NCBI GenBank assembly: GCA_964507665.1
Contig: CAZDPT010000004.1
Span: forward strand, 1 to 56,967
Source: an uncultured Candidatus Saccharibacteria bacterium
GTDB taxonomy: Bacteria; Patescibacteriota; Minisyncoccia; Minisyncoccales; CAYZYK01
DNA: 56,967 nucleotides
Direction: 5' to 3'
The notes below the pieces were generated by a model. It had not been told where the DNA came from, searched no databases, and saw nothing but the letters and a program-made list of their open reading frames with translations. How positions within the stretch are numbered: the stretch's first letter is position 1; each line of letters begins with the position of its first letter. Position numbers and translations under genes: made by a program. Below, in pieces: positions 2,050 through 16,641 of this stretch.

Positions 2050-2391
2050 ATGAAAAACCAAAAACCAAAATTTCACGGCGTTGAGCGAGATAAAATTGAA
2101 TGGTATCCGACAGTAGATAAATCTAAATGTATTGGTTGTGGAATGTGTGCTACTACTTGTGGTAAGGGTGTATACAAATTTAATTACGAAAAGAAAAAGG
2201 CAACAGTAGCTAATCCAAAAAATTGCATGGTAGCTTGCCAAACTTGTGCTAATTTATGCCCAGTCGGAGCTATTTCTTTCGCTAAGAATGACGCTACCCG
2301 AGGAAAAGTACAAAAGATAGTTAAAAAATTTAAGTTACTTGCTAAAGCTAAAGAAGAATTAAAAGACAAAAAAGAAGACCTTGAAATATAA
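2050..2391 (+). CDS. 4Fe-4S ferredoxin-domain protein
   Basis: Two Cys clusters: CIGCGMCATTC and CMVACQTCANLCP. Confidence 0.75.
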   Translation: MKNQKPKFHGVERDKIEWYPTVDKSKCIGCGMCATTCGKGVYKFNYEKKKATVANPKNCMVACQTCANLCPVGAISFAKNDATRGKVQKIVKKFKLLAKAKEELKDKKEDLEI

Positions 2392-2404
2392 AAGAGATAT
2401 AATT

Positions 2405-3067
2405 ATGCAGAAAAAAACAATTATCTTAGTATTATTTTTTATAGGAAGCTTGATTGTTTGTGGTGGAATATTTTTAAATAAAAGCAACAATATTGATTCA
2501 AAATCAATTTCAGCTAATTTATCAGAAGTGAAGCAAAAAGCAATCAAAATTGCTACTTGCCCAACTTGTTTTGAAAAGGCTAAAAAAATAAATAATAAAA
2601 AGTATAATATTATTAAAACCGGATCTACTGCCGAAAGTGTAAAACTTTTAAAAAATGGGGAAGTGGATGCTATTTTAGCCGGTAGAACTTTAAAACCCAG
2701 CGAACCCCAGTTGAAAGATGTTTTAATAAAAGAAGGATATTCTTTTTTAAACGATCAAAGTAAAATAGTTTATCTTAATCAATTAAAAGATTATAAAGTT
2801 TATACGGATCTGGATCCAAAAGAACTTAAAAACATTTTTCCGGTCCATAAAATTGAACGAGTTGAAGATGTCTATAAGTATTTAAGCAATGGCATCATAA
2901 TTACTTCTTGGGAGAATACCGATTTTAGCAGAGCTAATACCGTTCATCTATTAGAAAGAAACGGGAAAAGAGTAAATTTATCAAGAAGAATTGCTCTTTA
3001 TTGTTTGGATGATTGCAATGAAGAAGTGCAAGACTTAGTCTTATTATTAAAAGAAAATAATAATTAA
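2405..3067 (+). CDS. secreted/lipoprotein-like periplasmic-binding-fold protein, unknown ligand
   Basis: N-terminal hydrophobic anchor ending in Cys. 'TGSTAESVKLLKNGEVDAILAGR' resembles type-2 substrate-binding proteins. Start moved to ATG 2405 to avoid overlapping the ferredoxin. Confidence 0.5.
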   Translation: MQKKTIILVLFFIGSLIVCGGIFLNKSNNIDSKSISANLSEVKQKAIKIATCPTCFEKAKKINNKKYNIIKTGSTAESVKLLKNGEVDAILAGRTLKPSEPQLKDVLIKEGYSFLNDQSKIVYLNQLKDYKVYTDLDPKELKNIFPVHKIERVEDVYKYLSNGIIITSWENTDFSRANTVHLLERNGKRVNLSRRIALYCLDDCNEEVQDLVLLLKENNN

Positions 3068-3084
3068 ATTTTAAATATTTAAGC

Positions 3085-4464
3085 ATGAAAAAACCTATTT
3101 TCTCTATATTGATTCTCGCTTTTTTGTTATTAGGAATAAGTTCTCTAATTACAGATCAAATCTCTATTGGAACAGAGCAGGCTTTAGCCGCCGAAGAAAA
3201 AGGGGAGTTGTGTTTACATTTCTTTTATCAAGATGATTGTCCTCAGTGTCAACAAATATTAGAAGAAGGTTTTTTAAAGAAGTTGGAAAAAGAATATAAT
3301 ATAGACATAAAAAGACATAATATAAACCTGGAAGGAGAAAATGAATTATATCAAAAGTTTAAAGAGACTTACGGCTTTTCTTCCGGAGCTTATCCCATTG
3401 TATTTTTAGGTGACAGCTATTATATCGGTGAAAGTTCCATCCGCAATAATTTGGAAACTCAGATTATTGAATGCCAACAAAAAGATTGTATTTGTCCTGC
3501 AGAAAAAATAGACGGAATTTCACCTTCTGTGCCTAAATCTTCTGATATTACTCCGGAAGCAAAACAGACAGTAGATATCTCTCTGTTGGGAGAAATTGAT
3601 CTTTCCGGGACCCCTCTTTTTGTGTCCACCGGCCTTGTTGCTTTTGTAGATGGGTTTAACCCTTGTTCTTTGTGGTTAATAAGTTTTCTTTTGGGAATAG
3701 TAATTCATACTGGCTCCCGAAAGAAAATCTTTTTAGTTGGAATAACTTTTCTCCTGGTCACTACCGCCGTTTACGGTTTATTTATAGCGGGATTGTTAAA
3801 TATTTTCTCTTACATTGGTTATTTAACGTGGATTCAAGTTGGAGTTGCTATTTTGGCCCTTCTCTTTGCTTTGGTCAACATCAAGGATTATTTTTGGTAT
3901 AAGAAAGGAATATCCTTTACCATTTCTGATAAATACAAGCCGAAAATCTTCAAAGATGTTCGTAATATAATGAAAGGTAAAAGATCAACCTGGGCTATGA
4001 TGGTTGGGACCGCCGGTTTGGCCTTGGGGGTAGTATTAGTTGAACTTCCCTGCACAGCCGGTTTCCCGGTTATTTGGACTAATCTTCTTGCTCAATACCA
4101 AGTAGCTACCACTACTTTCGTTTTGTTGCTGCTTACGTATCTTCTAATTTATATGTTAGATGAGATGGCAGTAATTTTAGTTGCTACTTGGACCTTAAAG
4201 GCTGGAAGATTTGAAGAAAAACATGGGCGAATACTGAAACTTATTGGAGGAATGATTATGTTAGCTCTAGCCACAGTAATGGTAGTTAATCCGGACTTGA
4301 TGAATGATATTGGAAATAGCTTACTAATATTTGTTGGAGCAATTGCCGTTTCTCTTCTAATAGTGTTTATTCACCGAAAGTTATTTCCTGACCTCGGTAC
4401 AGAATTTAAAGAAGAAAAAAGTTTAGATTCTTCAGAAAAAAATAATCAATTAATAAAAATATGA
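3085..4464 (+). CDS. thioredoxin-like domain fused to a DsbD/CcdA-like thiol-disulfide membrane transporter
   Basis: Signal/anchor, then a CPQC thioredoxin-type motif, then a polytopic domain with membrane-embedded Cys motifs FNPC and ELPCTAG. Confidence 0.6.
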   Translation: MKKPIFSILILAFLLLGISSLITDQISIGTEQALAAEEKGELCLHFFYQDDCPQCQQILEEGFLKKLEKEYNIDIKRHNINLEGENELYQKFKETYGFSSGAYPIVFLGDSYYIGESSIRNNLETQIIECQQKDCICPAEKIDGISPSVPKSSDITPEAKQTVDISLLGEIDLSGTPLFVSTGLVAFVDGFNPCSLWLISFLLGIVIHTGSRKKIFLVGITFLLVTTAVYGLFIAGLLNIFSYIGYLTWIQVGVAILALLFALVNIKDYFWYKKGISFTISDKYKPKIFKDVRNIMKGKRSTWAMMVGTAGLALGVVLVELPCTAGFPVIWTNLLAQYQVATTTFVLLLLTYLLIYMLDEMAVILVATWTLKAGRFEEKHGRILKLIGGMIMLALATVMVVNPDLMNDIGNSLLIFVGAIAVSLLIVFIHRKLFPDLGTEFKEEKSLDSSEKNNQLIKI

Positions 4465-4868
4465 CTAATAATAAATTTCCTGAAAATTTATTTTATAACA
4501 AAGATTATTCTTGGGTACGTATCGAGAATAACACCGCGGTGCTGGGGGTGATTAAACCTGCTGTAGATAAGGTAAAAGAATTCGTATTTATCAAACTTCC
4601 CCAGAAAGGACAGATGCTTAAAAAAGGAGATAATTATGTTTCTTTGGAAGCGCTTAAATGGAGTGGCCATCTGAGCAGTCCGCTTTCGGGAGAAGTAATT
4701 GAGGTTAACGATCCGCTATTTGATGAACCTTCTACCATTAACAAAGACCCTTACAGCCAGGGCTGGATTGCTAAGATTAAAATTTCAAATAAGGAAGAAA
4801 TTAAAGAGTTAATGAAGGCCGATGAAGCCCAAAAATGGGTCGACTTGGGTATGGATAAAAATAATTAA
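4461..4868 (+). CDS. gcvH: glycine-cleavage H-protein family lipoyl carrier (GcvH/LbpA-like)
   Basis: 135 aa. 'VSLEALKWSGHLSSPLSGEVIEVN' matches the H-protein lipoyl-lysine context (K66 = nt 4656-4658). ATGA overlap with the upstream DsbD-like gene. Confidence 0.85.
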   Translation: MTNNKFPENLFYNKDYSWVRIENNTAVLGVIKPAVDKVKEFVFIKLPQKGQMLKKGDNYVSLEALKWSGHLSSPLSGEVIEVNDPLFDEPSTINKDPYSQGWIAKIKISNKEEIKELMKADEAQKWVDLGMDKNN

Positions 4869-4883
4869 TTAATCATTAAAATT

Positions 4884-5426
4884 ATGAACAAAAATTACTT
4901 TATTATTGGTTTAATCGCAATTTTACTTTTAGGGGGAGGAATGTGGTTGTTAACTCAAAATAAATCTCCCGATCGGGTTAGTAATACTAATAATACTGAA
5001 AATACCATAGAGAAAGAAAATAACACGGCAAATTCTACTAATAGTGTAGGAGATAGCTCAAACAGAAAAAGTTACATTGATACGGAAGAAAATGACTCGG
5101 ATAAAGTAGTTGTTTATTTTTTCTGGGGAGATGGCTGTCCTCACTGCGCAAAAGAAAAACCTTTCTTGGAGGGCTTGGAACAAAAATATTCGAAACTTGA
5201 AGTAAAGATGTTTGAAGTGTATTACAACCAAGATAACCAGGAGTTGTTCAAGGAAGTGGCCCAAGCTTATGGAACCCAGGCCCGAGGAGTTCCGACAACA
5301 TTTATTGGAGACTTTGACCCGGTTGTTGGATACGGCAGTGACCAAACTACGGGAAAAGAAATTGAAGACATGATAAAACAATGTATAGAAGGTGGATGCA
5401 TTAATCCCGGTTCTAAACTTGAATAA
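4884..5426 (+). CDS. membrane-anchored thioredoxin-fold protein (CPHC)
   Basis: N-terminal TM helix, low-complexity linker, then 'FFWGDGCPHCAKEKPFL' thioredoxin/TlpA-type active site. Confidence 0.7.
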   Translation: MNKNYFIIGLIAILLLGGGMWLLTQNKSPDRVSNTNNTENTIEKENNTANSTNSVGDSSNRKSYIDTEENDSDKVVVYFFWGDGCPHCAKEKPFLEGLEQKYSKLEVKMFEVYYNQDNQELFKEVAQAYGTQARGVPTTFIGDFDPVVGYGSDQTTGKEIEDMIKQCIEGGCINPGSKLE

Positions 5427-5451
5427 AAAAACTTAAAATTTAACCAAAAAT

Positions 5452-5706
5452 ATGACTGAAGAAAAAAATGATTATCAAATTAACGAGAGTCTGGATGTTC
5501 GCGGAGAAATCTGTCCTTATCCAGATATTAAGGCCAGAAAAAAATTGAAAGAAATGTCCTCAGGCCAAGTTTTGGAAGTTTTAACCGATTACCCCTTGTC
5601 TTTAGAGCGCATTCCGCGAAATAGTGAAAAAGAAGGGCATAAAGTTTTAAAGTTAGAAAAAATCGACAACGGGCCGGATCATCGTATAATTATTCAGGTT
5701 AAATAA
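5452..5706 (+). CDS. tusA: TusA/SirA/YeeD-family sulfur carrier
   Basis: 84 aa with 'DVRGEICPYP' (CPxP active-site Cys motif). Sits immediately upstream of YeeE. Confidence 0.8.
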   Translation: MTEEKNDYQINESLDVRGEICPYPDIKARKKLKEMSSGQVLEVLTDYPLSLERIPRNSEKEGHKVLKLEKIDNGPDHRIIIQVK

Positions 5707-5712
5707 ATAATT

Positions 5713-6726
5713 ATGTCTTTGGTTTTTATGATAATCAGCGGTTTAGCAATAGGAATTTTATTTGGCTTTGCTTTGCAACGCGGGCGGTTTTGTATGAATT
5801 CCGCCTTTCGCGACCCGCTTGTATTTAAGGATTTTACTCTACTCAAAGCGGTTAGTTTGGCTATTGCGGTTGAACTGGTTGGTTTTTATGCTCTGGATTT
5901 TTTTGGTTTGATAGAGTTCAGTCCTAAAACTCTTTATTTATTAGCCGTACCTTTGGGTGCTTATATTTTCGGTATTGGAATGGTAATAGCCGGTGGCTGT
6001 GCCAGCGGCACAGCTTATCGGGTAGGGGAAGGCATGATAGGGTCCTGGCTAGCTTTGTTTGGGTTTGTTGGTGCGGCCTATCTGGCTAAGGATGGATTTT
6101 TATCCGGTTTAATATCAAAAATTCAGACCTATGATTTTGGAACACCGACGCTTTCTTCCATCAGCGGTTTACCAGAAATAATTTTTGCAATTATTTTTGC
6201 TGGTTTACTTTTTTGGCTTTTATTCCGACAAAGACCAAACAAAACCCCAGATTCTAAGCATCAGTCTATCGTAAAGAGGATTTTTAAAAAAGGTTGGTCG
6301 TGGAAGATGGCCGGGTTAGCTATTGGGTTGATTGGAGTATTGGCTTTTGTTTTTTCTGCACTTTCCGGCCGAAATTACCCGTTGAGTATTACTATGGGCT
6401 TTGAGACAATTGTAAAATCAATTATTTATTGGGAAAACTTTTTGACTTGGGAATCGTTTGAAGTTATTGGTTTGTTGATTGGTGCTTTTGTGGGGTCGTA
6501 TTTTGCCGGTGAATTTAAATTCCGATTTCCAAAGCCGAGGGTTGCTCTCCAATCTTTTATAGGAGGAGTCTTAATGGGGTCTGGGGCGATTATTGCCGGC
6601 GGGTGCAATATTGGTCATATTTTAAGCGGGGTTCCCCAATTGGCTATTTCCAGCTTAGTAGCAGGTATTTTTATAATTCTCGGAGGATGGACAACGGCTT
6701 ACTTTTTATTTATTAGAAATAATTAA
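5713..6726 (+). CDS. yeeE: YeeE/YedE family sulfur-compound (thiosulfate) transporter
   Basis: 337-aa polytopic protein with conserved Cys-bearing motifs (GRFCMNSAF, AGGCASGT, AGGCNIGH) typical of YeeE/YedE. Confidence 0.85.
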   Translation: MSLVFMIISGLAIGILFGFALQRGRFCMNSAFRDPLVFKDFTLLKAVSLAIAVELVGFYALDFFGLIEFSPKTLYLLAVPLGAYIFGIGMVIAGGCASGTAYRVGEGMIGSWLALFGFVGAAYLAKDGFLSGLISKIQTYDFGTPTLSSISGLPEIIFAIIFAGLLFWLLFRQRPNKTPDSKHQSIVKRIFKKGWSWKMAGLAIGLIGVLAFVFSALSGRNYPLSITMGFETIVKSIIYWENFLTWESFEVIGLLIGAFVGSYFAGEFKFRFPKPRVALQSFIGGVLMGSGAIIAGGCNIGHILSGVPQLAISSLVAGIFIILGGWTTAYFLFIRNN

Positions 6727-6741
6727 ATTTAACAAAATACT

Positions 6742-7086
6742 ATGAAATTAGGATTAATGGTTACTCGGCCGCCCTACACATATCAGGATATTGACACTCT
6801 ATATTTTTTAAGCAAGGCGGCGATTGCTAAAAAACACCAAGTAAAAATATTTCTTTATGTTGATAGCGTGATTGTTGCAAACAAAGATTTGAAGCCAGCT
6901 AATCAAAGGAATTTGTATAAAAAAATGGAAGAGCTGACTGATTTAGGGGTGGAAATAAAGATTTGCGGTGTTTGTGTGCAATTTCGCGGTATAAAACGTG
7001 ATCAATTACTGCCTTCGGGTGAACTGGAGGGTCTACCCGGGTTGGCAGATATGGTTGAGGAATGCGATAAATTTATAAATTTATAA
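6742..7086 (+). CDS. DsrE/TusD-like sulfur-relay protein
   Basis: 114 aa with an N-terminal 'KLGLMVTRPPY' Rossmann-like start and a 'KICGVC' Cys motif. First gene of a DsrE/F/H-type trio. Confidence 0.7.
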   Translation: MKLGLMVTRPPYTYQDIDTLYFLSKAAIAKKHQVKIFLYVDSVIVANKDLKPANQRNLYKKMEELTDLGVEIKICGVCVQFRGIKRDQLLPSGELEGLPGLADMVEECDKFINL

Positions 7087-7095
7087 TAAGATAAT

Positions 7096-7449
7096 ATGGC
7101 AAAAAAAGTTTTAATAATCGTAAATAATCCGCCATTTGGTACAATTTTTCCGGCTGAGGCGCTTCGAGCCGGTATCGCTTTTGCTGGTATGGATTTGGAT
7201 ACTTCGCTGATTTTTAGGGGTGATGGAGTTTTTTCTTTAATTAAAAACCAAAAGCCCAAACTTATCGGTGCAGGTAACATAAAAGAAGGGTTATCTAATG
7301 CAGAGGAATTTGGTTTGAAAATTTTTGCCGACAAGAAAAGCTTAAGAAAAAAGAAAGTTACCGAAAGCGAAATAGAAAAGGTAAATATATTAACCGAGCA
7401 AAAAATAAAAAATTTAGTCAGATCGGCTGAAGTTATTATTAATTTTTAA
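7096..7449 (+). CDS. DsrF/TusC-like sulfur-relay protein
   Basis: 117 aa. 'KVLIIVNNPPFGT..AEALRAGIAFAG' is DsrE/DsrF-like. Middle gene of the trio. Confidence 0.65.
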   Translation: MAKKVLIIVNNPPFGTIFPAEALRAGIAFAGMDLDTSLIFRGDGVFSLIKNQKPKLIGAGNIKEGLSNAEEFGLKIFADKKSLRKKKVTESEIEKVNILTEQKIKNLVRSAEVIINF

Positions 7450-7454
7450 TTTTT

Positions 7455-7730
7455 ATGCTTTTTATTATAAAATCCAACGAAAATAACCGTTGCGAGCAAA
7501 CTCTAAAGTTTATGAACAAGGACGATAAAATTATTCTTATTCAAGATGGAGTACTTTTGGCTCATAACAATAACAATAAATTTATTTCAGCGGTAAAAAA
7601 TAAAGGCGCAGAAATTTTAGTTTTAGAAAATGATTTGAACTTAAGAGGGATTAAAAATAATATTGACGCTAAAATGGTTGCTTATGAGGATATGATTGGT
7701 CTTATAGAAAAAAATAAAGTTTTTTCTTAA
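7455..7730 (+). CDS. DsrH/TusB-like sulfur-relay protein
   Basis: 91 aa. Its size, position and the 'ILIQDGV' motif fit DsrH/TusB. Confidence 0.55.
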   Translation: MLFIIKSNENNRCEQTLKFMNKDDKIILIQDGVLLAHNNNNKFISAVKNKGAEILVLENDLNLRGIKNNIDAKMVAYEDMIGLIEKNKVFS

Positions 7731-7733
7731 AAC

Positions 7734-8567
7734 ATGAAGTTACCCGATTGGATTAAGATAAGAAAATACGATAAAGAAAAATATTTAAAAACCTTGGACA
7801 TTATAAACAAGAACAAACTAAACACAGTTTGCCTGGAAGCTAATTGTCCAAATCGTTATGAATGCTTTGAAAAAAGGAAAGCTACATTCATGATTTTGGG
7901 TGATATTTGCACCAGAAATTGTCGTTATTGTAATATTAAAAAAGGACAACCAAAATCGGTTGATAAAGAGGAACCGAAAAGAATCGCGGTTGCTGTTAAA
8001 AAGATGGAATTGGATTACGTGGTGATAACTTGCGTCACCAGAGATGACTTACCGGATGGCGGAGCTGACCAATTTATAAAAACAATCGGAGAAATAAAAA
8101 AAATTAATTCGGACTGTAAAATAGAAGTTTTAATATCGGACTTAAAAGGAAACTGGGTGGCGCTAAAAGAAATAATAAAAGCCGGACCGGATGTTATTAA
8201 TCATAACCTGGAAGCAGTTAAAAATATTTTTACTTTAGTCAGGCCCAAAGGTGATTATGGATTATCTTTAGAACTTTTAAGAAAAACAAAAGAATTCGCG
8301 TCGGGAGTAAAAACTAAATCCGGCTTTATGCTTGGTTTGGGCGAAACCGATAAACAAATAAGAGAAACACTTGTTGATTTAAAAAAAAGTAATTGTGATA
8401 TTGTTACGGTAGGACAGTATTTAGAGCCGAGTCTGGCGCATTTCTCGGTAAAAAAATACTACAAACCCAAAGAATTTAAAAAAATTAAAGTAATTGCCAA
8501 AGAAATTGGTATTAAACAAACTTTTGCCGGCCCTTTGATTAGAAGTTCTTATAAGGCAATCTTTTAA
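7734..8567 (+). CDS. lipA: lipoyl synthase
   Basis: Auxiliary-cluster motif CLEANCPNRYEC (CX4CX5C), radical-SAM motif CTRNCRYC, and C-terminal RSSY. Confidence 0.9.
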   Translation: MKLPDWIKIRKYDKEKYLKTLDIINKNKLNTVCLEANCPNRYECFEKRKATFMILGDICTRNCRYCNIKKGQPKSVDKEEPKRIAVAVKKMELDYVVITCVTRDDLPDGGADQFIKTIGEIKKINSDCKIEVLISDLKGNWVALKEIIKAGPDVINHNLEAVKNIFTLVRPKGDYGLSLELLRKTKEFASGVKTKSGFMLGLGETDKQIRETLVDLKKSNCDIVTVGQYLEPSLAHFSVKKYYKPKEFKKIKVIAKEIGIKQTFAGPLIRSSYKAIF

Positions 8568-8591
8568 AAATAAAAATGTTACAATAAAAAT

Positions 8592-9347
8592 ATGACAACT
8601 TGGAGAATTATAAAAACAATTAATGATAGTGGGGCAAAACAGATGGCTGTTGATGAAGCCATACTAAAGGCGAGGATAAAAAATAAAGTTCCGAATACCC
8701 TGCGTTTTTTTACTTGGGAGCCACTTTGTGTAACCATAGGTTTCTTTCAATCTTTAAAAGAAGAGGTTGATATTGAAAAAGCTCGATCTATGGGCGTAGA
8801 CGTAGTTAGAAGATATACGGGAGGAGGAGCGGTTTTACATGAACATGAATTGACTTATTCTTTAGCTATTTCGGAAAAAGATGTTTCTTCTGATATAGTT
8901 AAGTCCTATAAAGATATCTGTGATGGAATAATTAAAGCTCTGCTTTCTCTTGGCATAAAAGCGGAATTCAAACCTATAAATGATATTATTGTCGGTAATA
9001 AAAAAATATCAGGTAATGCCCAAACCAGAAAGTCAGGCGTGGTTTTACAGCATGGAACAATACTTTTGGACTTGAATTTGGAAAAAATGTTTTCCGTGTT
9101 AAAGGTCCCTGACGAAAAAATTAAGGATAAGATAATAAAGGCGGCCAAAGAGCGAGTAACTTCATTAAAAAACGAATTAAGGCGAGCGATCACTTGTGAG
9201 GAAATAGAAAGGGCGTTAATCAGTGGATTTGAAAAAACGTTTAATATAAAAACTGGAGTCGGAGAACTAACTTCCGAGGAATTAAAGTTTGCCAAAAAAT
9301 TATATAAAGAAAAATACACAAACGATAAATGGAATAATTGGCGATAA
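8592..9347 (+). CDS. lplA: lipoate-protein ligase, catalytic domain
   Basis: 251 aa. 'RRYTGGGAV.HE' and 'KKISGNAQTRK' (catalytic Lys motif) are typical of the LplA/LipB/BirA fold. Confidence 0.85.
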   Translation: MTTWRIIKTINDSGAKQMAVDEAILKARIKNKVPNTLRFFTWEPLCVTIGFFQSLKEEVDIEKARSMGVDVVRRYTGGGAVLHEHELTYSLAISEKDVSSDIVKSYKDICDGIIKALLSLGIKAEFKPINDIIVGNKKISGNAQTRKSGVVLQHGTILLDLNLEKMFSVLKVPDEKIKDKIIKAAKERVTSLKNELRRAITCEEIERALISGFEKTFNIKTGVGELTSEELKFAKKLYKEKYTNDKWNNWR

Positions 9348-9351
9348 AATT

Positions 9352-9618
9352 ATGAAACAAAATATAGTTCACAAAGTTCCACAGGGAAAACTACTAAGAA
9401 TAGAGGTGGAAATTGAAAATTCTATGATTAAAGAAATTAAAATTACTGGAGATTTTTTTATTCATCCGGAAAAAGCAATCTGTGAGATTGAAGAATTTTT
9501 AGTAGATAAAGAAGTTCAAAAAGTAGAAGAAAAGCTTTTAAAATTATTAAAAGAAAAAAATATTAAAATAGTAGGTTTTACTCCAGAAGATTTACAAAAA
9601 AGTATAACAAAATTCTAA
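9352..9618 (+). CDS. separately encoded LplA C-terminal accessory domain (LplB-like)
   Basis: 89 aa from ATG 9352. Contains 'ITGDFFIHPE'. Sits directly after lplA, matching known bipartite lipoate ligases. Confidence 0.6.
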   Translation: MKQNIVHKVPQGKLLRIEVEIENSMIKEIKITGDFFIHPEKAICEIEEFLVDKEVQKVEEKLLKLLKEKNIKIVGFTPEDLQKSITKF

Positions 9619-9726: not shown

Positions 9727-9787
9727 CAGTTCGAACGTCGTACGGTAAACGGAGCAGAGAAGCCCGAGATTATTTTCTTGGGTTTTT
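9727..9787 (+). repeat. intergenic repeat copy A (diverged), ending in terminator hairpin
   Basis: 'CAGTTCGAACGTCGTACGG..GGAGCAGAGAAGCCCGAGATTATTTTCTTGGGTTTTT' aligns with copies B-D. Confidence 0.75.
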
Positions 9788-9813
9788 GGTTTGTTGTTTT
9801 TTATGCTAAAATA

Positions 9814-10119
9814 ATGAGTATAGATATGAAAAACTTAAAACAATTAAAGAAAATTATAAAGGGCTGTGAGCCAACTCTTAAAGAAAAGTTTAAAGTTAAA
9901 AAGATTGGAGTATTTGGTTCTTATACCAAAAACAAAGCTAAACAAAATAGCGATGTTGATATTTTAGTTGAATTTACAGAACCAGTTGGGCTTTTTACTT
10001 TCCTTGAATTGGAAGAATTTTTGGAAGAAAAATTAGACTCTGGAGTTGATTTAGTAACTAAAAAAGCCTTAAAACCAGCTATCGGTAAAAGGATTCTTAA
10101 AGAAGTCTCTTATTTATGA
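9814..10119 (+). CDS. MNT-type nucleotidyltransferase (antitoxin of a HEPN/MNT pair)
   Basis: 'GVFGSY....SDVDILVEF' minimal NTase motif. ATGA overlap with the downstream HEPN gene. Start moved past repeat copy A. Confidence 0.8.
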   Translation: MSIDMKNLKQLKKIIKGCEPTLKEKFKVKKIGVFGSYTKNKAKQNSDVDILVEFTEPVGLFTFLELEEFLEEKLDSGVDLVTKKALKPAIGKRILKEVSYL

Positions 10120-10475
10120 CCGACAAAGTATACTTAGATTATATCCAAGATATTCTTAATTCTATTAAAGAAATAGAAGAGTTTACTGAAGATTTAAATT
10201 TTAATGATTTTATAGAAGACAGGAAAACTATTAACGCAGTAATTCGTAGTTTAGAAATTATAGGAGAGGCAACTAAGAATATTCCTAAATCGATTAGATC
10301 TAATTATCCTAAAATTCCTTGGAAATCAATGACAGGAATGAGAGATAAACTTATTCATGAATATTCTGGTGTTAATCTGGAGATGGTTTGGGAAACAATA
10401 AAAAAGGATATTCCAAAAGTTAAACCTTTAATTGAAAAAATAGAACAGGAATTCCAAAAGAAAGGTAGAGGTTAA
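10116..10475 (+). CDS. HEPN (DUF86) domain toxin
   Basis: 119 aa with the 'RDKLIHEY' R-x4-H-x-Y HEPN motif. Confidence 0.85.
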   Translation: MTDKVYLDYIQDILNSIKEIEEFTEDLNFNDFIEDRKTINAVIRSLEIIGEATKNIPKSIRSNYPKIPWKSMTGMRDKLIHEYSGVNLEMVWETIKKDIPKVKPLIEKIEQEFQKKGRG

Positions 10476-12250: not shown

Positions 12251-13750
12251 ATGACCAAAAAAACTCCTAAAAAGACTTCAAGAGACAAAAAGCTTAAAGT
12301 TTTGTTTGTCGCTACTGAAGCAGCCCCTTTTGTTAAAGCGGGAGGGTTAGGAGATGTTATGTATTCTCTACCTGTGGCTTTAAAAGAAAAGGGCCATGAT
12401 ATTAGAGTAATGATTCCCCGCTATGGAACAATTGAGCCAGAGGAGCATAAATTAAGTAATGAGATAAAAGGATTAAGGGTTCCCACTGGTCAAAAAGAAG
12501 GCCCTCATAAATATTTGGTCTGTAATGTAAAAAAGTATAGCAATAAGAAAACAGTTACTACTTATTTCCTTGAAAATATGGAATATTATGAGAAAAGAGC
12601 TAATGTTTATGGATATTCAGACGATCATATAAGGTGGGCTCTTTTTTCAAAAGGAGTAATTGAATTTTTAAAAAAATCATCCTGGAAACCAGACCTTATA
12701 GTAGCCTCTGATTGGCAGGCTGGTCTTATTCCTGATTATCTTAAAACTATCTATAAGGAAGATGACATTTCTTCGATACCAGTGGTTTTTTGTATACATA
12801 ATCTTTCCTATCAGGGTATGTGTGACTTCAGATTCATAAAAGAAAGCGAGAAAGATTCAGGACAAGAAGCAATTCCTGGTTTTTTTAATTCCCGTTTAGC
12901 TAAGCTAAATTGGATGTTGAGAGGTATAATGTATGCTGATACGGTTGTTACTGTCTCACCAACTTATGCTAAAGAAATTCTTACTCCAGAATACGGAGAA
13001 GGCCTGGAGAAGATATTAGCAGAGAAACAACACCATCTTTATGGAATATTAAACGGAATAAATTATGAACATTATAGTCCTCAAGATTCACCTCACATTC
13101 CAGAACATTATAGTGTAAAGAACATAGAGATAAAAAAGAAAAACAAAAAGGAACTTCAGAAACGATTTGGACTTCCAAAAAGACCTGATGTTTTTGTGGC
13201 AGGCATGGTTTCTCGTTTGGCTCCACAAAAAGGATTTGATCTTTTGGAAAAAATGATTCACCCTTTACTTGGAAATCTTGATACTCAGATAGTATTTTTG
13301 GGAGATGGGGAGGGAAGATACAAAAAGATAATTGAAAAAGCAAGAGAAGAATATCCTCAAAAAGTAGGCTATATCTTTGAGTTTAATTTAGAGTTGCCTC
13401 ATCTTGTTTTTGCTGGATCTGATGTTACTTTTCTTCCTTCTAAATTTGAACCTTGTGGTGTGGTTCAAATGCAAGCTATGAAATACGGAGCTTTGCCTAT
13501 AGCAAGAAAGACCGGAGGCTTGGCAGATACTGTTAAAAGTTTTGACCTCAAGAAAAAAGAAGGAAATGGAATTCTTTTTGAAGATTATGATCCTTGGTCT
13601 TTTTATACAGCTATTATAAAAGCAGCAACAACTTTCCAATTTAAAGATACATGGAAAAAACTTATAAAAAATGCTATGAAGGAAGATTTTTCATGGGATA
13701 AGTCAGCCAAGAAATATGAGAAAGTTTTTAAGAAAACTTTAGAAAAATAA
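12251..13750 (+). CDS. glgA: glycogen/starch synthase (GT5)
   Basis: N-terminal 'EAAPFVKAGGLGDV' signature and C-terminal 'PSKFEPCGVVQM'. Confidence 0.9.
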   Translation: MTKKTPKKTSRDKKLKVLFVATEAAPFVKAGGLGDVMYSLPVALKEKGHDIRVMIPRYGTIEPEEHKLSNEIKGLRVPTGQKEGPHKYLVCNVKKYSNKKTVTTYFLENMEYYEKRANVYGYSDDHIRWALFSKGVIEFLKKSSWKPDLIVASDWQAGLIPDYLKTIYKEDDISSIPVVFCIHNLSYQGMCDFRFIKESEKDSGQEAIPGFFNSRLAKLNWMLRGIMYADTVVTVSPTYAKEILTPEYGEGLEKILAEKQHHLYGILNGINYEHYSPQDSPHIPEHYSVKNIEIKKKNKKELQKRFGLPKRPDVFVAGMVSRLAPQKGFDLLEKMIHPLLGNLDTQIVFLGDGEGRYKKIIEKAREEYPQKVGYIFEFNLELPHLVFAGSDVTFLPSKFEPCGVVQMQAMKYGALPIARKTGGLADTVKSFDLKKKEGNGILFEDYDPWSFYTAIIKAATTFQFKDTWKKLIKNAMKEDFSWDKSAKKYEKVFKKTLEK

Positions 13751-15226
13751 ATGTATTGGATTAACTTTTTACATATATATCAGCCAATTACCCAATCTGA
13801 CAAAATACTTGAAAGGGTAGTGAATGAATCATATCTCCCTTTATTTGAGGGGTTCTTGGGTTTAAAAAACATTAAAGTTAATTTGAATATTAGTGGGGCT
13901 TTAACTGAACTTCTGGTTAATAAAGGCTATAGGAAGGTACTGGAGATAATAAGGAAGCTTGCTGAAACCGGTAGATTAGAATTTACAGAAACTGCTAAAA
14001 ATCATGCATTTCTACCTTTATTGGATAAGAAATATATTAAACGACAAATAAGAAAGAATAACCAGACTAATTCTGAATATTTTGGTGAAAGTTACAATCC
14101 AATCTGCTTTTTTCCTCCTGAAATGGCTTACTCTGTGAAGATGGAGGAGACAGTAAAAGAAATGGGTTATAAGATGATAATATTAGATGAAATCTCTTAT
14201 CATAAAGAAAAGAAACCAAAAACAAATAGGATATATCAGAGTTCCAAAGGTCTTAAAATTGCTTTCAGGGAAAGAAGAGTCTCCAACTCAATTATGAGTG
14301 GAATTGTAAGAAGCAAAGAAGATTTCAGAGAGGTTTTAGGAGATGAAATTGAAAAAGAGAAGTATCTTTGTACCGCTATGGATGGGGAAACTTTCGGACA
14401 TCATCGGCCCGGACTTGAAAAATCTCTTTTTGAAATACTTTCCTCAGAACAGCCCAAGCAAATTTTTCTTTCTGAATTGCCAAAGTACTTCAAAAAAACA
14501 GAAAAGGTTATTCTTAATGAAGCAACCTGGGCCTCTTCTGTTGAAGAAATTCAAGAAGGAACCCAATTTTATTCCTGGAAAAACCCAGAGAACAAAGTCC
14601 AAAATGTTCAATGGGATTTTGTAAATTATCTTTTAAAATTAGCTAAAAAAAGAGAACTCTCAAATGAAACAGAAGAGAAAATAGACAGAGCTTTAGCTTC
14701 CGATCAATTTTTTTGGGGGTCAGGGGAGCCTTGGTGGAGTATTGAAATGATAGAAAAAGGAGCTTGGTCTATTCTTCAAGCCCTGAAAAGTTTGCCTGAT
14801 TTAACCAAGAAAGAATTAAAGAAAGGGGAGAATTACTACAAAGAGATTCTTTCTGTTGCCTTTTGGTGGCAGAGGAGTGGGAAAATAGAAGAGAAAGCTA
14901 AAAAGTATAAAGAAGCAGTAAGAATACCCTTTAAAGAAAGAACTCTCCAGGAAGACAAGCCCGAAGTCTATTATGCTTTTGTTGATCTTATGAGAGAAAA
15001 AATGGAAGAAGCAGTAGAGGAGAAAAACTTTGAAAAAGCTATTCTCTGGCGTGATGCTATCTGGAAACTTGAAACAAAGAATGATATTTATGATGCTATT
15101 CATGCAGTTGATCTTTTGAGATCTGAAGTTCCCAATGATAGAATTACTGAACTTATGGATAAATACAAAGAGAAGTATAAAAAGATAAAACCAGGTCAAC
15201 CAGAAATTAGAAAAATTCAAGATTAA
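13751..15226 (+). CDS. GH57-family glycoside hydrolase with C-terminal UVR-like motif
   Basis: 'NFLHIYQP' and 'MDGETFGHH' resemble GH57 signature regions. C-terminal 'EKNFEKAILWRDAIWKLE' resembles a UvrB/C (UVR) helical hairpin. Confidence 0.7.
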   Translation: MYWINFLHIYQPITQSDKILERVVNESYLPLFEGFLGLKNIKVNLNISGALTELLVNKGYRKVLEIIRKLAETGRLEFTETAKNHAFLPLLDKKYIKRQIRKNNQTNSEYFGESYNPICFFPPEMAYSVKMEETVKEMGYKMIILDEISYHKEKKPKTNRIYQSSKGLKIAFRERRVSNSIMSGIVRSKEDFREVLGDEIEKEKYLCTAMDGETFGHHRPGLEKSLFEILSSEQPKQIFLSELPKYFKKTEKVILNEATWASSVEEIQEGTQFYSWKNPENKVQNVQWDFVNYLLKLAKKRELSNETEEKIDRALASDQFFWGSGEPWWSIEMIEKGAWSILQALKSLPDLTKKELKKGENYYKEILSVAFWWQRSGKIEEKAKKYKEAVRIPFKERTLQEDKPEVYYAFVDLMREKMEEAVEEKNFEKAILWRDAIWKLETKNDIYDAIHAVDLLRSEVPNDRITELMDKYKEKYKKIKPGQPEIRKIQD

Positions 15227-16641
15227 TGAAAATAATACATCAAGCAGCAGAATACGGACCATTAGTTAAAGTAGGGGGTCTGGCGGATGTGGTAGGATCT
15301 CTTTCTAAGGCCTTAAAGAAAAAAGGCTTGGATGTCTCCGTTGTAATCCCTTTTTATGGCACAATAAAGATTAAGGAAAAAAACAAAGAGCTCATAAAAG
15401 AAAACCTGAAAATATCTTTTGGAGGAAAAGAAGAAACTTTTAACCTTTGGAAGGCTATTGTTCCGGGAGAGGAAGTCCCTGTTTTTTTAATAGAAAGTAG
15501 GTATTTTCAAAAAAAAGAAGTTTATTATAGAAAAGACGCCTCCTCGGGCGGAGGAAAGAAAGAAGCAGAAAAGTTTCTTTTTCTTTCAAAAGCAGGCCTG
15601 AAAGTAACTGAGATTCTTGGGGCTGACATTCTCCATTGTCACGACTGGCATGTTGGAATAACCCCTTTCCTTATTAAAGAAGAAAAGGGAGACTTGAGAA
15701 CTCTTTTAACTATTCATAATCTTAAATATCAAGGAGAATACCCCCCAAAAATTGTAAACTCTCTTTTGGGCACAAGTTTTAAAAAAGAAGTTAATTGTTT
15801 AAAATTAGGAATTAAAACAGCAGACCTTGTGAACACTGTAAGTCCCTCCTATGCAAGAGAGATTTTAACTGAAGAATTCGGTTCTGGTTTGGGGGAAGTA
15901 TTAAAAAGAAGAGAAGATGATCTTTTAGGGATTCTTAATGGATTAGATGTTACTTTTTTCAATCCCAAAAAAGATAAATTTTTGATTCAGAACTATTCTG
16001 TTGATAGTCTAGAAAAGAAAAAGGAGAACAAAAAGGAATTACAGAAAAGATATTTTAAAAAAGTAAATCAAAAAATTCCTCTTTTAGGAATGATAACTCG
16101 TCTGGCTCCACAAAAAGGAATTGATCTTGTAGAGAAAATATTCAAAGATCTTTTAGAAAGGGAAGTGCAGTTTATTCTTCTAGGAGAAGGAAGGGAAGAG
16201 TATGAAAACTTTTTTAGAAAAATGGATAAAGAATATGGAAATTTCTCCGCTCAGGTTGAATTTAACGAAGAACTTGCTCATAAGATATATGCGGGCGCTG
16301 ATATCTTTCTTGTACCTTCAAAGTTTGAACCCTGTGGGTTAGGTCAGATGATAGCTATGAATTATGGTACAGTTCCCATAGTAAGAGCGGTTGGTGGATT
16401 AAAAGATACAGTTTCTCCTGTTAAAAAAGAAAAAGAAAAAATTAATGGTACAGGTTTTCTTTTTGATGATTACAAAGCAGAATCTCTTTTTGAAACAATA
16501 GAAAGAGGACTCAAGTTTTTTAGAAATAAAAAGATCTGGATTGAAGTCCAGAAAAATGGAATGAAAAAGGATTTTTCATGGAAAGCTTCGGCTCAAAGAT
16601 ATATTGAAACCTATAAAAGACTTCTCTCTAAAAACAAATAG
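15226..16641 (+). CDS. glgA: glycogen/starch synthase, second paralog
   Basis: 'EYGPLVKVGGLADV' and 'PSKFEPCGLGQM'. 1-nt overlap (TAATG) with the GH57 gene. Confidence 0.9.
   Translation: MKIIHQAAEYGPLVKVGGLADVVGSLSKALKKKGLDVSVVIPFYGTIKIKEKNKELIKENLKISFGGKEETFNLWKAIVPGEEVPVFLIESRYFQKKEVYYRKDASSGGGKKEAEKFLFLSKAGLKVTEILGADILHCHDWHVGITPFLIKEEKGDLRTLLTIHNLKYQGEYPPKIVNSLLGTSFKKEVNCLKLGIKTADLVNTVSPSYAREILTEEFGSGLGEVLKRREDDLLGILNGLDVTFFNPKKDKFLIQNYSVDSLEKKKENKKELQKRYFKKVNQKIPLLGMITRLAPQKGIDLVEKIFKDLLEREVQFILLGEGREEYENFFRKMDKEYGNFSAQVEFNEELAHKIYAGADIFLVPSKFEPCGLGQMIAMNYGTVPIVRAVGGLKDTVSPVKKEKEKINGTGFLFDDYKAESLFETIERGLKFFRNKKIWIEVQKNGMKKDFSWKASAQRYIETYKRLLSKNK

Follow-up and report, generated by a model that had tools for sequence, protein, structure and literature searches.

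A divergent DsbD/CcdA-like thiol relay encoded with a GcvH-type lipoyl carrier in bacteria of the candidate phyla radiation and DPANN archaea

Introduction

Why would a lipoyl carrier protein be encoded between two parts of a transmembrane thiol relay? The question is raised by a stretch of 56,967 nucleotides (nt) from an uncultured Candidatus Saccharibacteria bacterium (GenBank assembly GCA_964507665.1, contig CAZDPT010000004.1), hereafter the window, whose coordinates are used unless another contig or locus is named. Three genes, all on the + strand, form its core: 3085-4464 encodes a 459-amino acid (aa) thioredoxin-CcdA-like fusion (the relay), 4461-4868 a 135-aa lipoyl carrier of the glycine cleavage H-protein (GcvH) type, and 4884-5426 a 180-aa membrane-anchored, exported thioredoxin/glutaredoxin-like protein. 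An original prediction, made from the letters of the window alone, had raised the possibility that dihydrolipoyl-H-protein, rather than cytoplasmic thioredoxin, is the electron donor of the relay. We followed this up in the source genome (734 kb, 96.5% complete) and in its relatives. The pairing of relay and GcvH recurs in many bacteria of the candidate phyla radiation (CPR) and in DPANN archaea, which suggests an undescribed transmembrane thiol redox route. We lean, with modest confidence, toward the view that the relay uses protein-bound lipoate, carried by a dedicated GcvH of a KWSGH subfamily, as its cytoplasmic dithiol partner. Full-text literature searches found no paper on a link between GcvH and a CcdA-type relay, or on this cassette.

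Results

The relay protein joins an exported thioredoxin domain to two membrane-embedded cysteines

The relay protein starts with a signal or anchor segment (residues 5-22) and carries, in its exported thioredoxin (Trx) domain, a CPQC motif at residues 52-55 (nt 3238-3249) and a second pair, Cys130/Cys135. Two further motifs follow: FNPC with Cys194 (nt 3655-3666) and ELPCTAG with Cys323 (nt 4042-4062). Among 44 homologs, Cys52, Cys55, Cys130, and Cys135 are nearly invariant; Cys194 and Cys323 do not vary at all, nor do the motifs around them. An AlphaFold2 (AF2) model of the relay, built with these 44 homologs (predicted local distance difference test [pLDDT] 80.7), consists of a Trx fold at approximately residues 40-135 and a domain of seven transmembrane (TM) helices at residues 176-433, with TM1 and TM4 broken exactly at Cys194 and Cys323, in the middle of the membrane. 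Counts of lysine and arginine match an N-out, C-in topology, with an external Trx domain and an internal tail: neither residue occurs in the three predicted outer loops, and the loop at residues 271-301 has ten in all. Motif positions, model, and charge pattern hence bear out both the predicted arrangement, an extracytoplasmic CPQC thioredoxin-like domain followed by a polytopic domain with FNPC and ELPCTAG, and the membrane-embedded location of the two cysteines. Residues 32-134 align with many thioredoxins (Z ~10 in VIA-align), and thioredoxins are the sole matches in a PDB sequence-profile search with the relay.

The 180-aa protein, which had been called a membrane-anchored CPHC thioredoxin, fits that description. 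An N-terminal anchor and a low-complexity linker accompany CPHC at residues 85-88 and a C-terminal CxxxxC pair, and the protein matches Pfam Redoxin and Thioredoxin_2. With a Trx fold and a CxxC active site, both exported domains pass as thioredoxin-fold oxidoreductases. The 180-aa protein is the ortholog of the separate Trx gene found 3′ of GcvH in relatives; we considered whether it is a relocated N-terminal domain of the relay and rejected this, because relatives keep a separate Trx after GcvH.

Remote homology places the membrane domain with CcdA and DsbD

Direct scans gave no Pfam or NCBIfam family match for the membrane domain of the relay. Neither PF02683 nor PF13386 matched the full protein, its TM part, or any of the 44 close homologs, six of which gave weak SfLAP matches. 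A bridge is provided by TM-only proteins of 221-242 aa from other CPR genomes, which carry NPC and (E/F)(L/F)PC motifs as in the relay and match the window domain with E values of 1e-14 to 1e-20; several of them match PF02683 above the cut-off (39.5 bits) with full-length coverage. Profile-profile comparison (hhalign) of a diversified alignment against 20 PF02683-positive CPR CcdA proteins gave a Prob of 96.5% (E 8.7e-10, 217 columns), and both relay cysteines paired with CcdA Pro-Cys motifs. With the narrow alignment alone, the comparison failed (Prob 8.5%), and it became positive once distant relatives were added.

Since the Trx domain dominated whole-model searches with Foldseek and VIA-align, the TM part was folded alone (pLDDT 79.3). 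In VIA-align, this model matched the nuclear magnetic resonance structure of CcdA (5VKV) with Z 8.2 and a root-mean-square deviation of 4.9, and the alignment covered 206 of its 224 residues; unrelated transporters, at Z 8.3-8.8, were on a par with it. 5VKV had the highest TM-score in the Foldseek list, but with a TMt of 0.50 at an E value of about 1. Language-model neighbors of the domain carry SfLAP and DsbD_TM. From transitive search and profile-profile comparison, together with a structural match of a kind that helical bundles can also give by arrangement, we regard the membrane domain as a divergent branch of the DsbD/CcdA superfamily without a Pfam model of its own. The DsbD/CcdA-like reading in the original prediction is in this way confirmed by remote-homology methods alone.

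A lipoyl carrier without a metabolic partner

The 135-aa protein matches GCV_H (PF01597, E 2.9e-35), contains no cysteine, and has no signal peptide; its lipoyl-lysine, Lys66 in EALKWSGH, is invariant in 15 orthologs. It scores above the cut-off of an NCBIfam GcvH subfamily model and below that of the gcvH equivalog (102 versus 115.85 bits). It is encoded by the one GCV_H gene of the genome. Searches of the 96.5%-complete genome gave no match to GCV_T, the 2-oxoacid dehydrogenase E2 core, Pyr_redox_dim (as in Lpd), or the HdrB CCG domain; these searches did not include the P-protein. Because no GcvT, E2, Lpd, or Hdr match was obtained, this GcvH is, by genome content, an orphan lipoyl protein. 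No other lipoyl acceptor was found for LipA and the split LplA/LplB ligase encoded in the same operon.

Readings as a canonical glycine cleavage system or a lipoyl relay were rejected for lack of GCV_T, E2, and Lpd matches. We also rejected an identity with LbpA of the sHdr system. In passages of PMC6067878, LbpA is recognized by two conserved cysteines near the N and C termini and by association with hdr-like genes; the window GcvH has no cysteine at all, and therefore lacks the two that define LbpA, and the HdrB CCG domain went unmatched in the genome.

The relay and a KW-type GcvH are encoded together in many relatives

To survey the gene adjacency, we used the 80 closest loci in species-representative genomes. 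GcvH lies directly downstream of the relay gene in 17 of them (L003-L015, L018, L019, L025, and L082 in our numbering), which by record titles come from CPR bacteria (Moraniibacteriota, Falkowbacteria, Patescibacteria) or from Woesearchaeota archaea (DPANN). The usual gene order is PBP-like Cys protein, (Trx)-Trx-TM, GcvH, anchored Trx, a flavoprotein of 440-457 aa, LipA, LplA, and LplB, with the three lipoylation genes kept at the 3′ end of the cassette. Several of the records L004-L014, L018, and L082 are titled Gammaproteobacteria, Pseudomonadales, or Methanosarcinales; their cassettes and small genomes look like those of CPR or DPANN, and these labels, which may be placeholders, were not relied on.

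We also scanned metagenomes with 15 GcvHs from the cassettes as seeds and obtained 80 loci; KW-type sequences are overrepresented among them, since one of the two scan patterns included the KW motif. We grouped these loci by GcvH motif, counted them by neighboring gene, and treated as evaluable those with at least 900 nt upstream. The relay gene is directly upstream in 37 of the 40 evaluable loci with a KW[ST]GH-type GcvH (the motif after the lipoyl-lysine), and in none of the 10 loci with the canonical ESVK(A/S)(V/I)S(D/E) type. The neighborhood of a gcvH and a dsbD/ccdA-like gene, seen once in the window, hence recurs in both surveys, and its frequency lies far beyond chance. In these comparisons, the GcvH falls into a dedicated KWSGH subfamily tied to the relay gene, and comparative genomics gives strong support to a putative functional coupling of this orphan lipoyl protein to the relay. 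The association is limited to one subfamily and is not phylum-wide, because among 400 sampled genomes of the phylum, 115 had relay homologs and 6 had GcvH, with both on the same contig in none.

In a quick maximum-likelihood tree, the GcvH-linked relays form a basal CPR/DPANN grade, and a large Chloroflexota clade is well supported. Two residues of the cytoplasmic loop, K274 and K287, are specific to the GcvH-linked group and are E and G in the Chloroflexota clade, a weak indication.

The predicted translational coupling of relay and GcvH holds in part. Read directly, the ATGA at 4461-4464 contains both the relay stop codon (TGA) and the overlapping GcvH start, but the overlap is local, as spacers in relatives range from an overlap to about 180 nt. 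The GcvH and 180-aa Trx genes are 15 nt apart.

Sulfur-relay genes occupy the slot of the relatives' flavoprotein

The flavoprotein of the relatives' cassettes combines Pyr_redox_2 with Pyr_redox_dim and is of the single-Cys coenzyme A disulfide reductase (CoADR)/Nox type; its closest solved structures are NoxA-3 (6PFZ), CoA-persulfide reductase (8A56), and CoADR. It would be the natural candidate for an NAD(P)H:lipoyl-GcvH reductase. In the window, its slot is filled by genes for TusA (5452-5706), YeeE/Sulf_transp (5713-6726), and DsrE/F/H-like proteins (6742-7730), all on the + strand and assigned by Pfam. This set is found at L082 and L042 only among the 80 genome loci, and at none of the 80 metagenome loci. 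L082 is the only other cassette that contains it; the L082 genome is also without the flavoprotein, which the control genomes L003 and L010 have. Since just one other cassette and no metagenome locus carries the set, the window is, by gene content, a rare sub-variant with a sulfur relay and no flavoprotein. Flavoprotein-like matches near Chloroflexota homologs were dismissed as unrelated, being distant both in sequence (22-27% identity) and in position (7-9 kb off).

At L082 (2575-13633), the gene set comes in two halves, TusA-Trx-YeeE-DsrEFH-LipA-LplA-LplB and TM-GcvH-DUF169-LplA-LplB, hence two LplA/LplB pairs. In some cassettes, DUF169 (PF02596) genes separate the lipoylation genes from GcvH or Trx (L003:12837-13595, L012:12034-12816, L013:12060-12830, and L082:11845-12603). 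They stand alongside the flavoprotein in L003 and L025 and occur without it in L012, L013, and L082.

A second relay in the same genome is encoded with a thioredoxin

Contig C8 encodes a Trx-TM paralog of 387 aa with a CPHC motif, 28% identical to the window relay. Its operon (C8:7189-9151, - strand; locus L118:1669-3652; Pfam) also contains a cytoplasmic thioredoxin (CPPC) and an AhpD/CMD-like protein. The thioredoxin is classical (PF00085 at 97 bits). That thioredoxin accompanies one relay gene and lipoyl-GcvH the other is what would be expected if each relay were encoded with its own cytoplasmic partner. The sole thioredoxin reductase (TrxR)-like gene of the genome (C2:28785-29684, L002) scores 320 bits, under the TIGR01292 cut-off of 343.

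Layout of the operon and its surroundings

Genes from 2050 to 9618 are tightly packed, with overlaps or spacers of 3-25 nt. At the head of the operon, a ferredoxin-like gene with 2x[4Fe-4S] (2050-2391, + strand; Pfam Fer4 families) overlaps the start of the next gene. It stands at this place in this genome alone and is not kept in the relatives' cassettes; tblastn matches were found in some Chloroflexota loci only. Conceivably, this ferredoxin supplies the cassette with electrons.

The gene at 2405-3067 (+ strand), recognized by alignment and synteny, encodes an exported or anchored protein without a Pfam match. Its Cys52 is invariant in the alignment, it has a C-terminal CxxxC, and its orthologs lie directly upstream of the relay gene in L003, L005, L006, L007, L009, and four metagenome loci. 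Its language-model neighbors are anion-binding PBP_like_2 proteins (0.87-0.89), which we treat as a lead. This protein may be a client of the exported thioredoxins or a ligand-binding partner to them.

The lipoylation genes, assigned by NCBIfam on the + strand, are those for LipA (7734-8567), the LplA large subunit (8592-9347), and LplB (9289-9618). A terminator-like hairpin and T-run in the sequence 3′ of LplB (9758-9787, + strand) likely marks the end of the operon. Directly past the operon (9778-10475) are genes for an MNT nucleotidyltransferase and a HepT-like RNase, a toxin-antitoxin-type module, followed by an NYN-domain gene. At 12251-16641, a GH57 gene with a UVR motif is flanked by two starch/glycogen-synthase paralogs (Glyco_transf_5).

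Discussion

From gene content and conservation, we infer a physical thiol exchange between GcvH and the relay, a direction of electron flow, and extracytoplasmic clients. In the scheme that we propose, dihydrolipoyl-Lys66 of GcvH would reduce the Cys194-Cys323 pair within the membrane; this pair would reduce the fused exported CPQC domain, which would reduce the separate membrane-anchored CPHC thioredoxin and, through it, extracytoplasmic clients. LipA and LplAB of the operon would serve to lipoylate GcvH alone. In most relatives, the single-Cys CoADR/Nox-type flavoprotein would recharge lipoyl-GcvH from NAD(P)H, and in this genome the candidates for recharging are sulfide/sulfane-sulfur chemistry, the operon ferredoxin, or the Trx/TrxR system. 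Outward electron flow is favored because the lipoyl couple, at about -0.29 V, is as reducing as thioredoxin (and a poor oxidant for protein dithiols), and because the described members of the superfamily move electrons outward. Passages in PMC3322552 describe this direction for CcdA, DsbD, and ScsB relays.

The proposal of dihydrolipoyl-H-protein as donor gains strong comparative support from the conserved TM-GcvH-Trx order, the GcvH subfamily, the missing matches to glycine cleavage and 2-oxoacid partners, the relatives' flavoprotein, and the thioredoxin-paired paralog. Several observations weigh against it. First, Pfam and tblastn searches of this genome returned neither the flavoprotein nor DUF169, and Lpd went unmatched as well. 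Second, thioredoxin and the TrxR-like gene of the genome could supply the relay in the ordinary way. Third, the large Chloroflexota clade of the relay family operates without GcvH alongside. Fourth, no fusion of GcvH to longer proteins or to any cassette partner was found, which is weak evidence. Fifth, the structural match to CcdA falls in a range where helical bundles match by arrangement alone. Finally, electrons could run inward, as taken up below.

The sulfur-relay genes invite a more specific version of the proposal. A direct link of TusA or DsrE to lipoyl groups is chemically reasonable, because an interaction of TusA with the lipoate-binding protein LbpA is documented in Aquifex (PMC11094781). 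The more specific version would hold that in many CPR and DPANN lineages a CcdA-type relay has the lipoate of a specialized GcvH in place of thioredoxin as its cytoplasmic partner and that here and in L082 the relay is tied through TusA-YeeE-DsrEFH to sulfide, thiosulfate, or persulfide, not to NAD(P)H. We hold this version to be rather improbable; if it were true, the redox state of cell-surface thiols would be dictated by sulfur compounds in the environment.

Among the alternatives, the one that survives best, although we consider it unlikely, is that relay and GcvH are neighbors without direct exchange. The relay would be fed by cytoplasmic thioredoxin, and lipoyl-GcvH would be co-regulated with it and act in a separate cytoplasmic thiol/sulfur chemistry, where it might serve TusA/DsrEFH and YeeE-imported thiosulfate as a reductant or an acceptor of sulfane sulfur, or act as a lipoyl antioxidant together with the relatives' flavoprotein. 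The presence of thioredoxin and a TrxR-like gene would fit, as would the TusA-YeeE-DsrEFH set, which adjoins LipA here and in L082, and the TusA interaction in Aquifex (PMC11094781). However, the TM-GcvH order is tight in those 37 of 40 KW-type loci, spans two domains of life, and stands mostly without sulfur-relay genes; the genome's thioredoxin gene shares an operon with the other relay paralog; and the window GcvH is without the cysteines by which passages in PMC6067878 define LbpA.

Reversing the direct exchange seems to us more doubtful still. The exported CPHC and CPQC thioredoxins would then oxidize secreted proteins in a DsbA-like manner and send electrons inward, via the membrane cysteines, to oxidized lipoyl-GcvH. 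GcvH would be re-oxidized by the relatives' flavoprotein or, here, by a TusA/DsrEFH persulfide, and the whole would be a quinone-free substitute for DsbB/VKOR. Flow could run inward because CPHC is the active-site motif of the oxidizing DsbA and because neither DsbB nor VKOR gave a match in the genome; moreover, no lipoyl-GcvH reductase was found here, whereas persulfide carriers could take its electrons. Against this, the lipoyl couple is weak as an oxidant of protein dithiols, and the exported domains, small Trx/Grx folds, lack the helical insert of DsbA. The relays described in passages of PMC3322552 also run the other way.

That the gene encodes an ordinary glycine cleavage H-protein, or a lipoyl-relay intermediate for E2 subunits, placed here by chance is barely credible: it does match GCV_H and the NCBIfam subfamily model, but it falls short of the equivalog cut-off, carries the distinct KWSGH motif tied to the relay gene, and has no GcvT, E2, or Lpd match to work with.

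The proposed lipoyl-fed relay can be set beside four known systems. With CcdA/DsbD/ScsB relays (Escherichia coli DsbD, Thermus CcdA 5VKV, and pneumococcal CcdA-Etrx), it shares two membrane cysteines in Pro-Cys motifs on TM1 and TM4 and perhaps a 3+3 helix core, and it would likewise pass electrons to exported thioredoxin-fold domains, as passages in PMC3322552 and PMC3914529 describe. As in DsbD, an N-terminal periplasmic domain precedes TM1. In these relays, the donor is cytoplasmic thioredoxin. The window relay departs from them in sequence, so far that PF02683 does not match it, and in having one more helix, the seventh, together with a basic loop conserved on the cytoplasmic side; its gene neighbors encode an orphan lipoyl-GcvH and lipoylation enzymes.

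In the Lpd-DlaT-AhpD-AhpC peroxidase relay of Mycobacterium tuberculosis, reportedly described by Bryk et al. in 2002, an NADH flavoprotein recharges protein-bound dihydrolipoyl, which reduces a CxxC protein. Our scheme would similarly have protein-bound dihydrolipoyl act, outside classical metabolism, on a CxxC protein. The mycobacterial relay is a soluble system of the cytoplasm that works with a true Lpd and the lipoyl domain of an E2, whereas here the carrier would be GcvH, the flavoprotein the single-Cys CoADR/Nox type of the relatives, and the acceptor a membrane relay.

The sHdr-LbpA system, according to passages in PMC6067878 and PMC11094781, resembles the window in its GcvH-like carrier, its own LplA-type ligase, and the TusA and DsrE-family genes alongside. 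It differs in that no Hdr (CCG domain) was found in this genome, the carrier here is without the two LbpA cysteines, and most cassettes of the relay-GcvH family are without sulfur transferases. The GcvH-L/SirTM/macrodomain operons of Firmicute pathogens (PMC4518038) also combine an extra GcvH-type carrier with a dedicated ligase outside glycine cleavage; the window operon has no sirtuin or macrodomain gene, and its partner would be a membrane thiol relay.

Because the cassette is compact, its reconstitution in E. coli or in proteoliposomes is feasible, and the idea is directly testable. If true, it would explain what the puzzling lipoylation genes do in ultra-small organisms without lipoate-dependent metabolism, and it would add a second type of cytoplasmic donor to a DsbD/CcdA paradigm that has so far been thioredoxin based. 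It would also suggest how cells without quinones or respiratory chains handle the thiols of their surface, which is their interface with the host.

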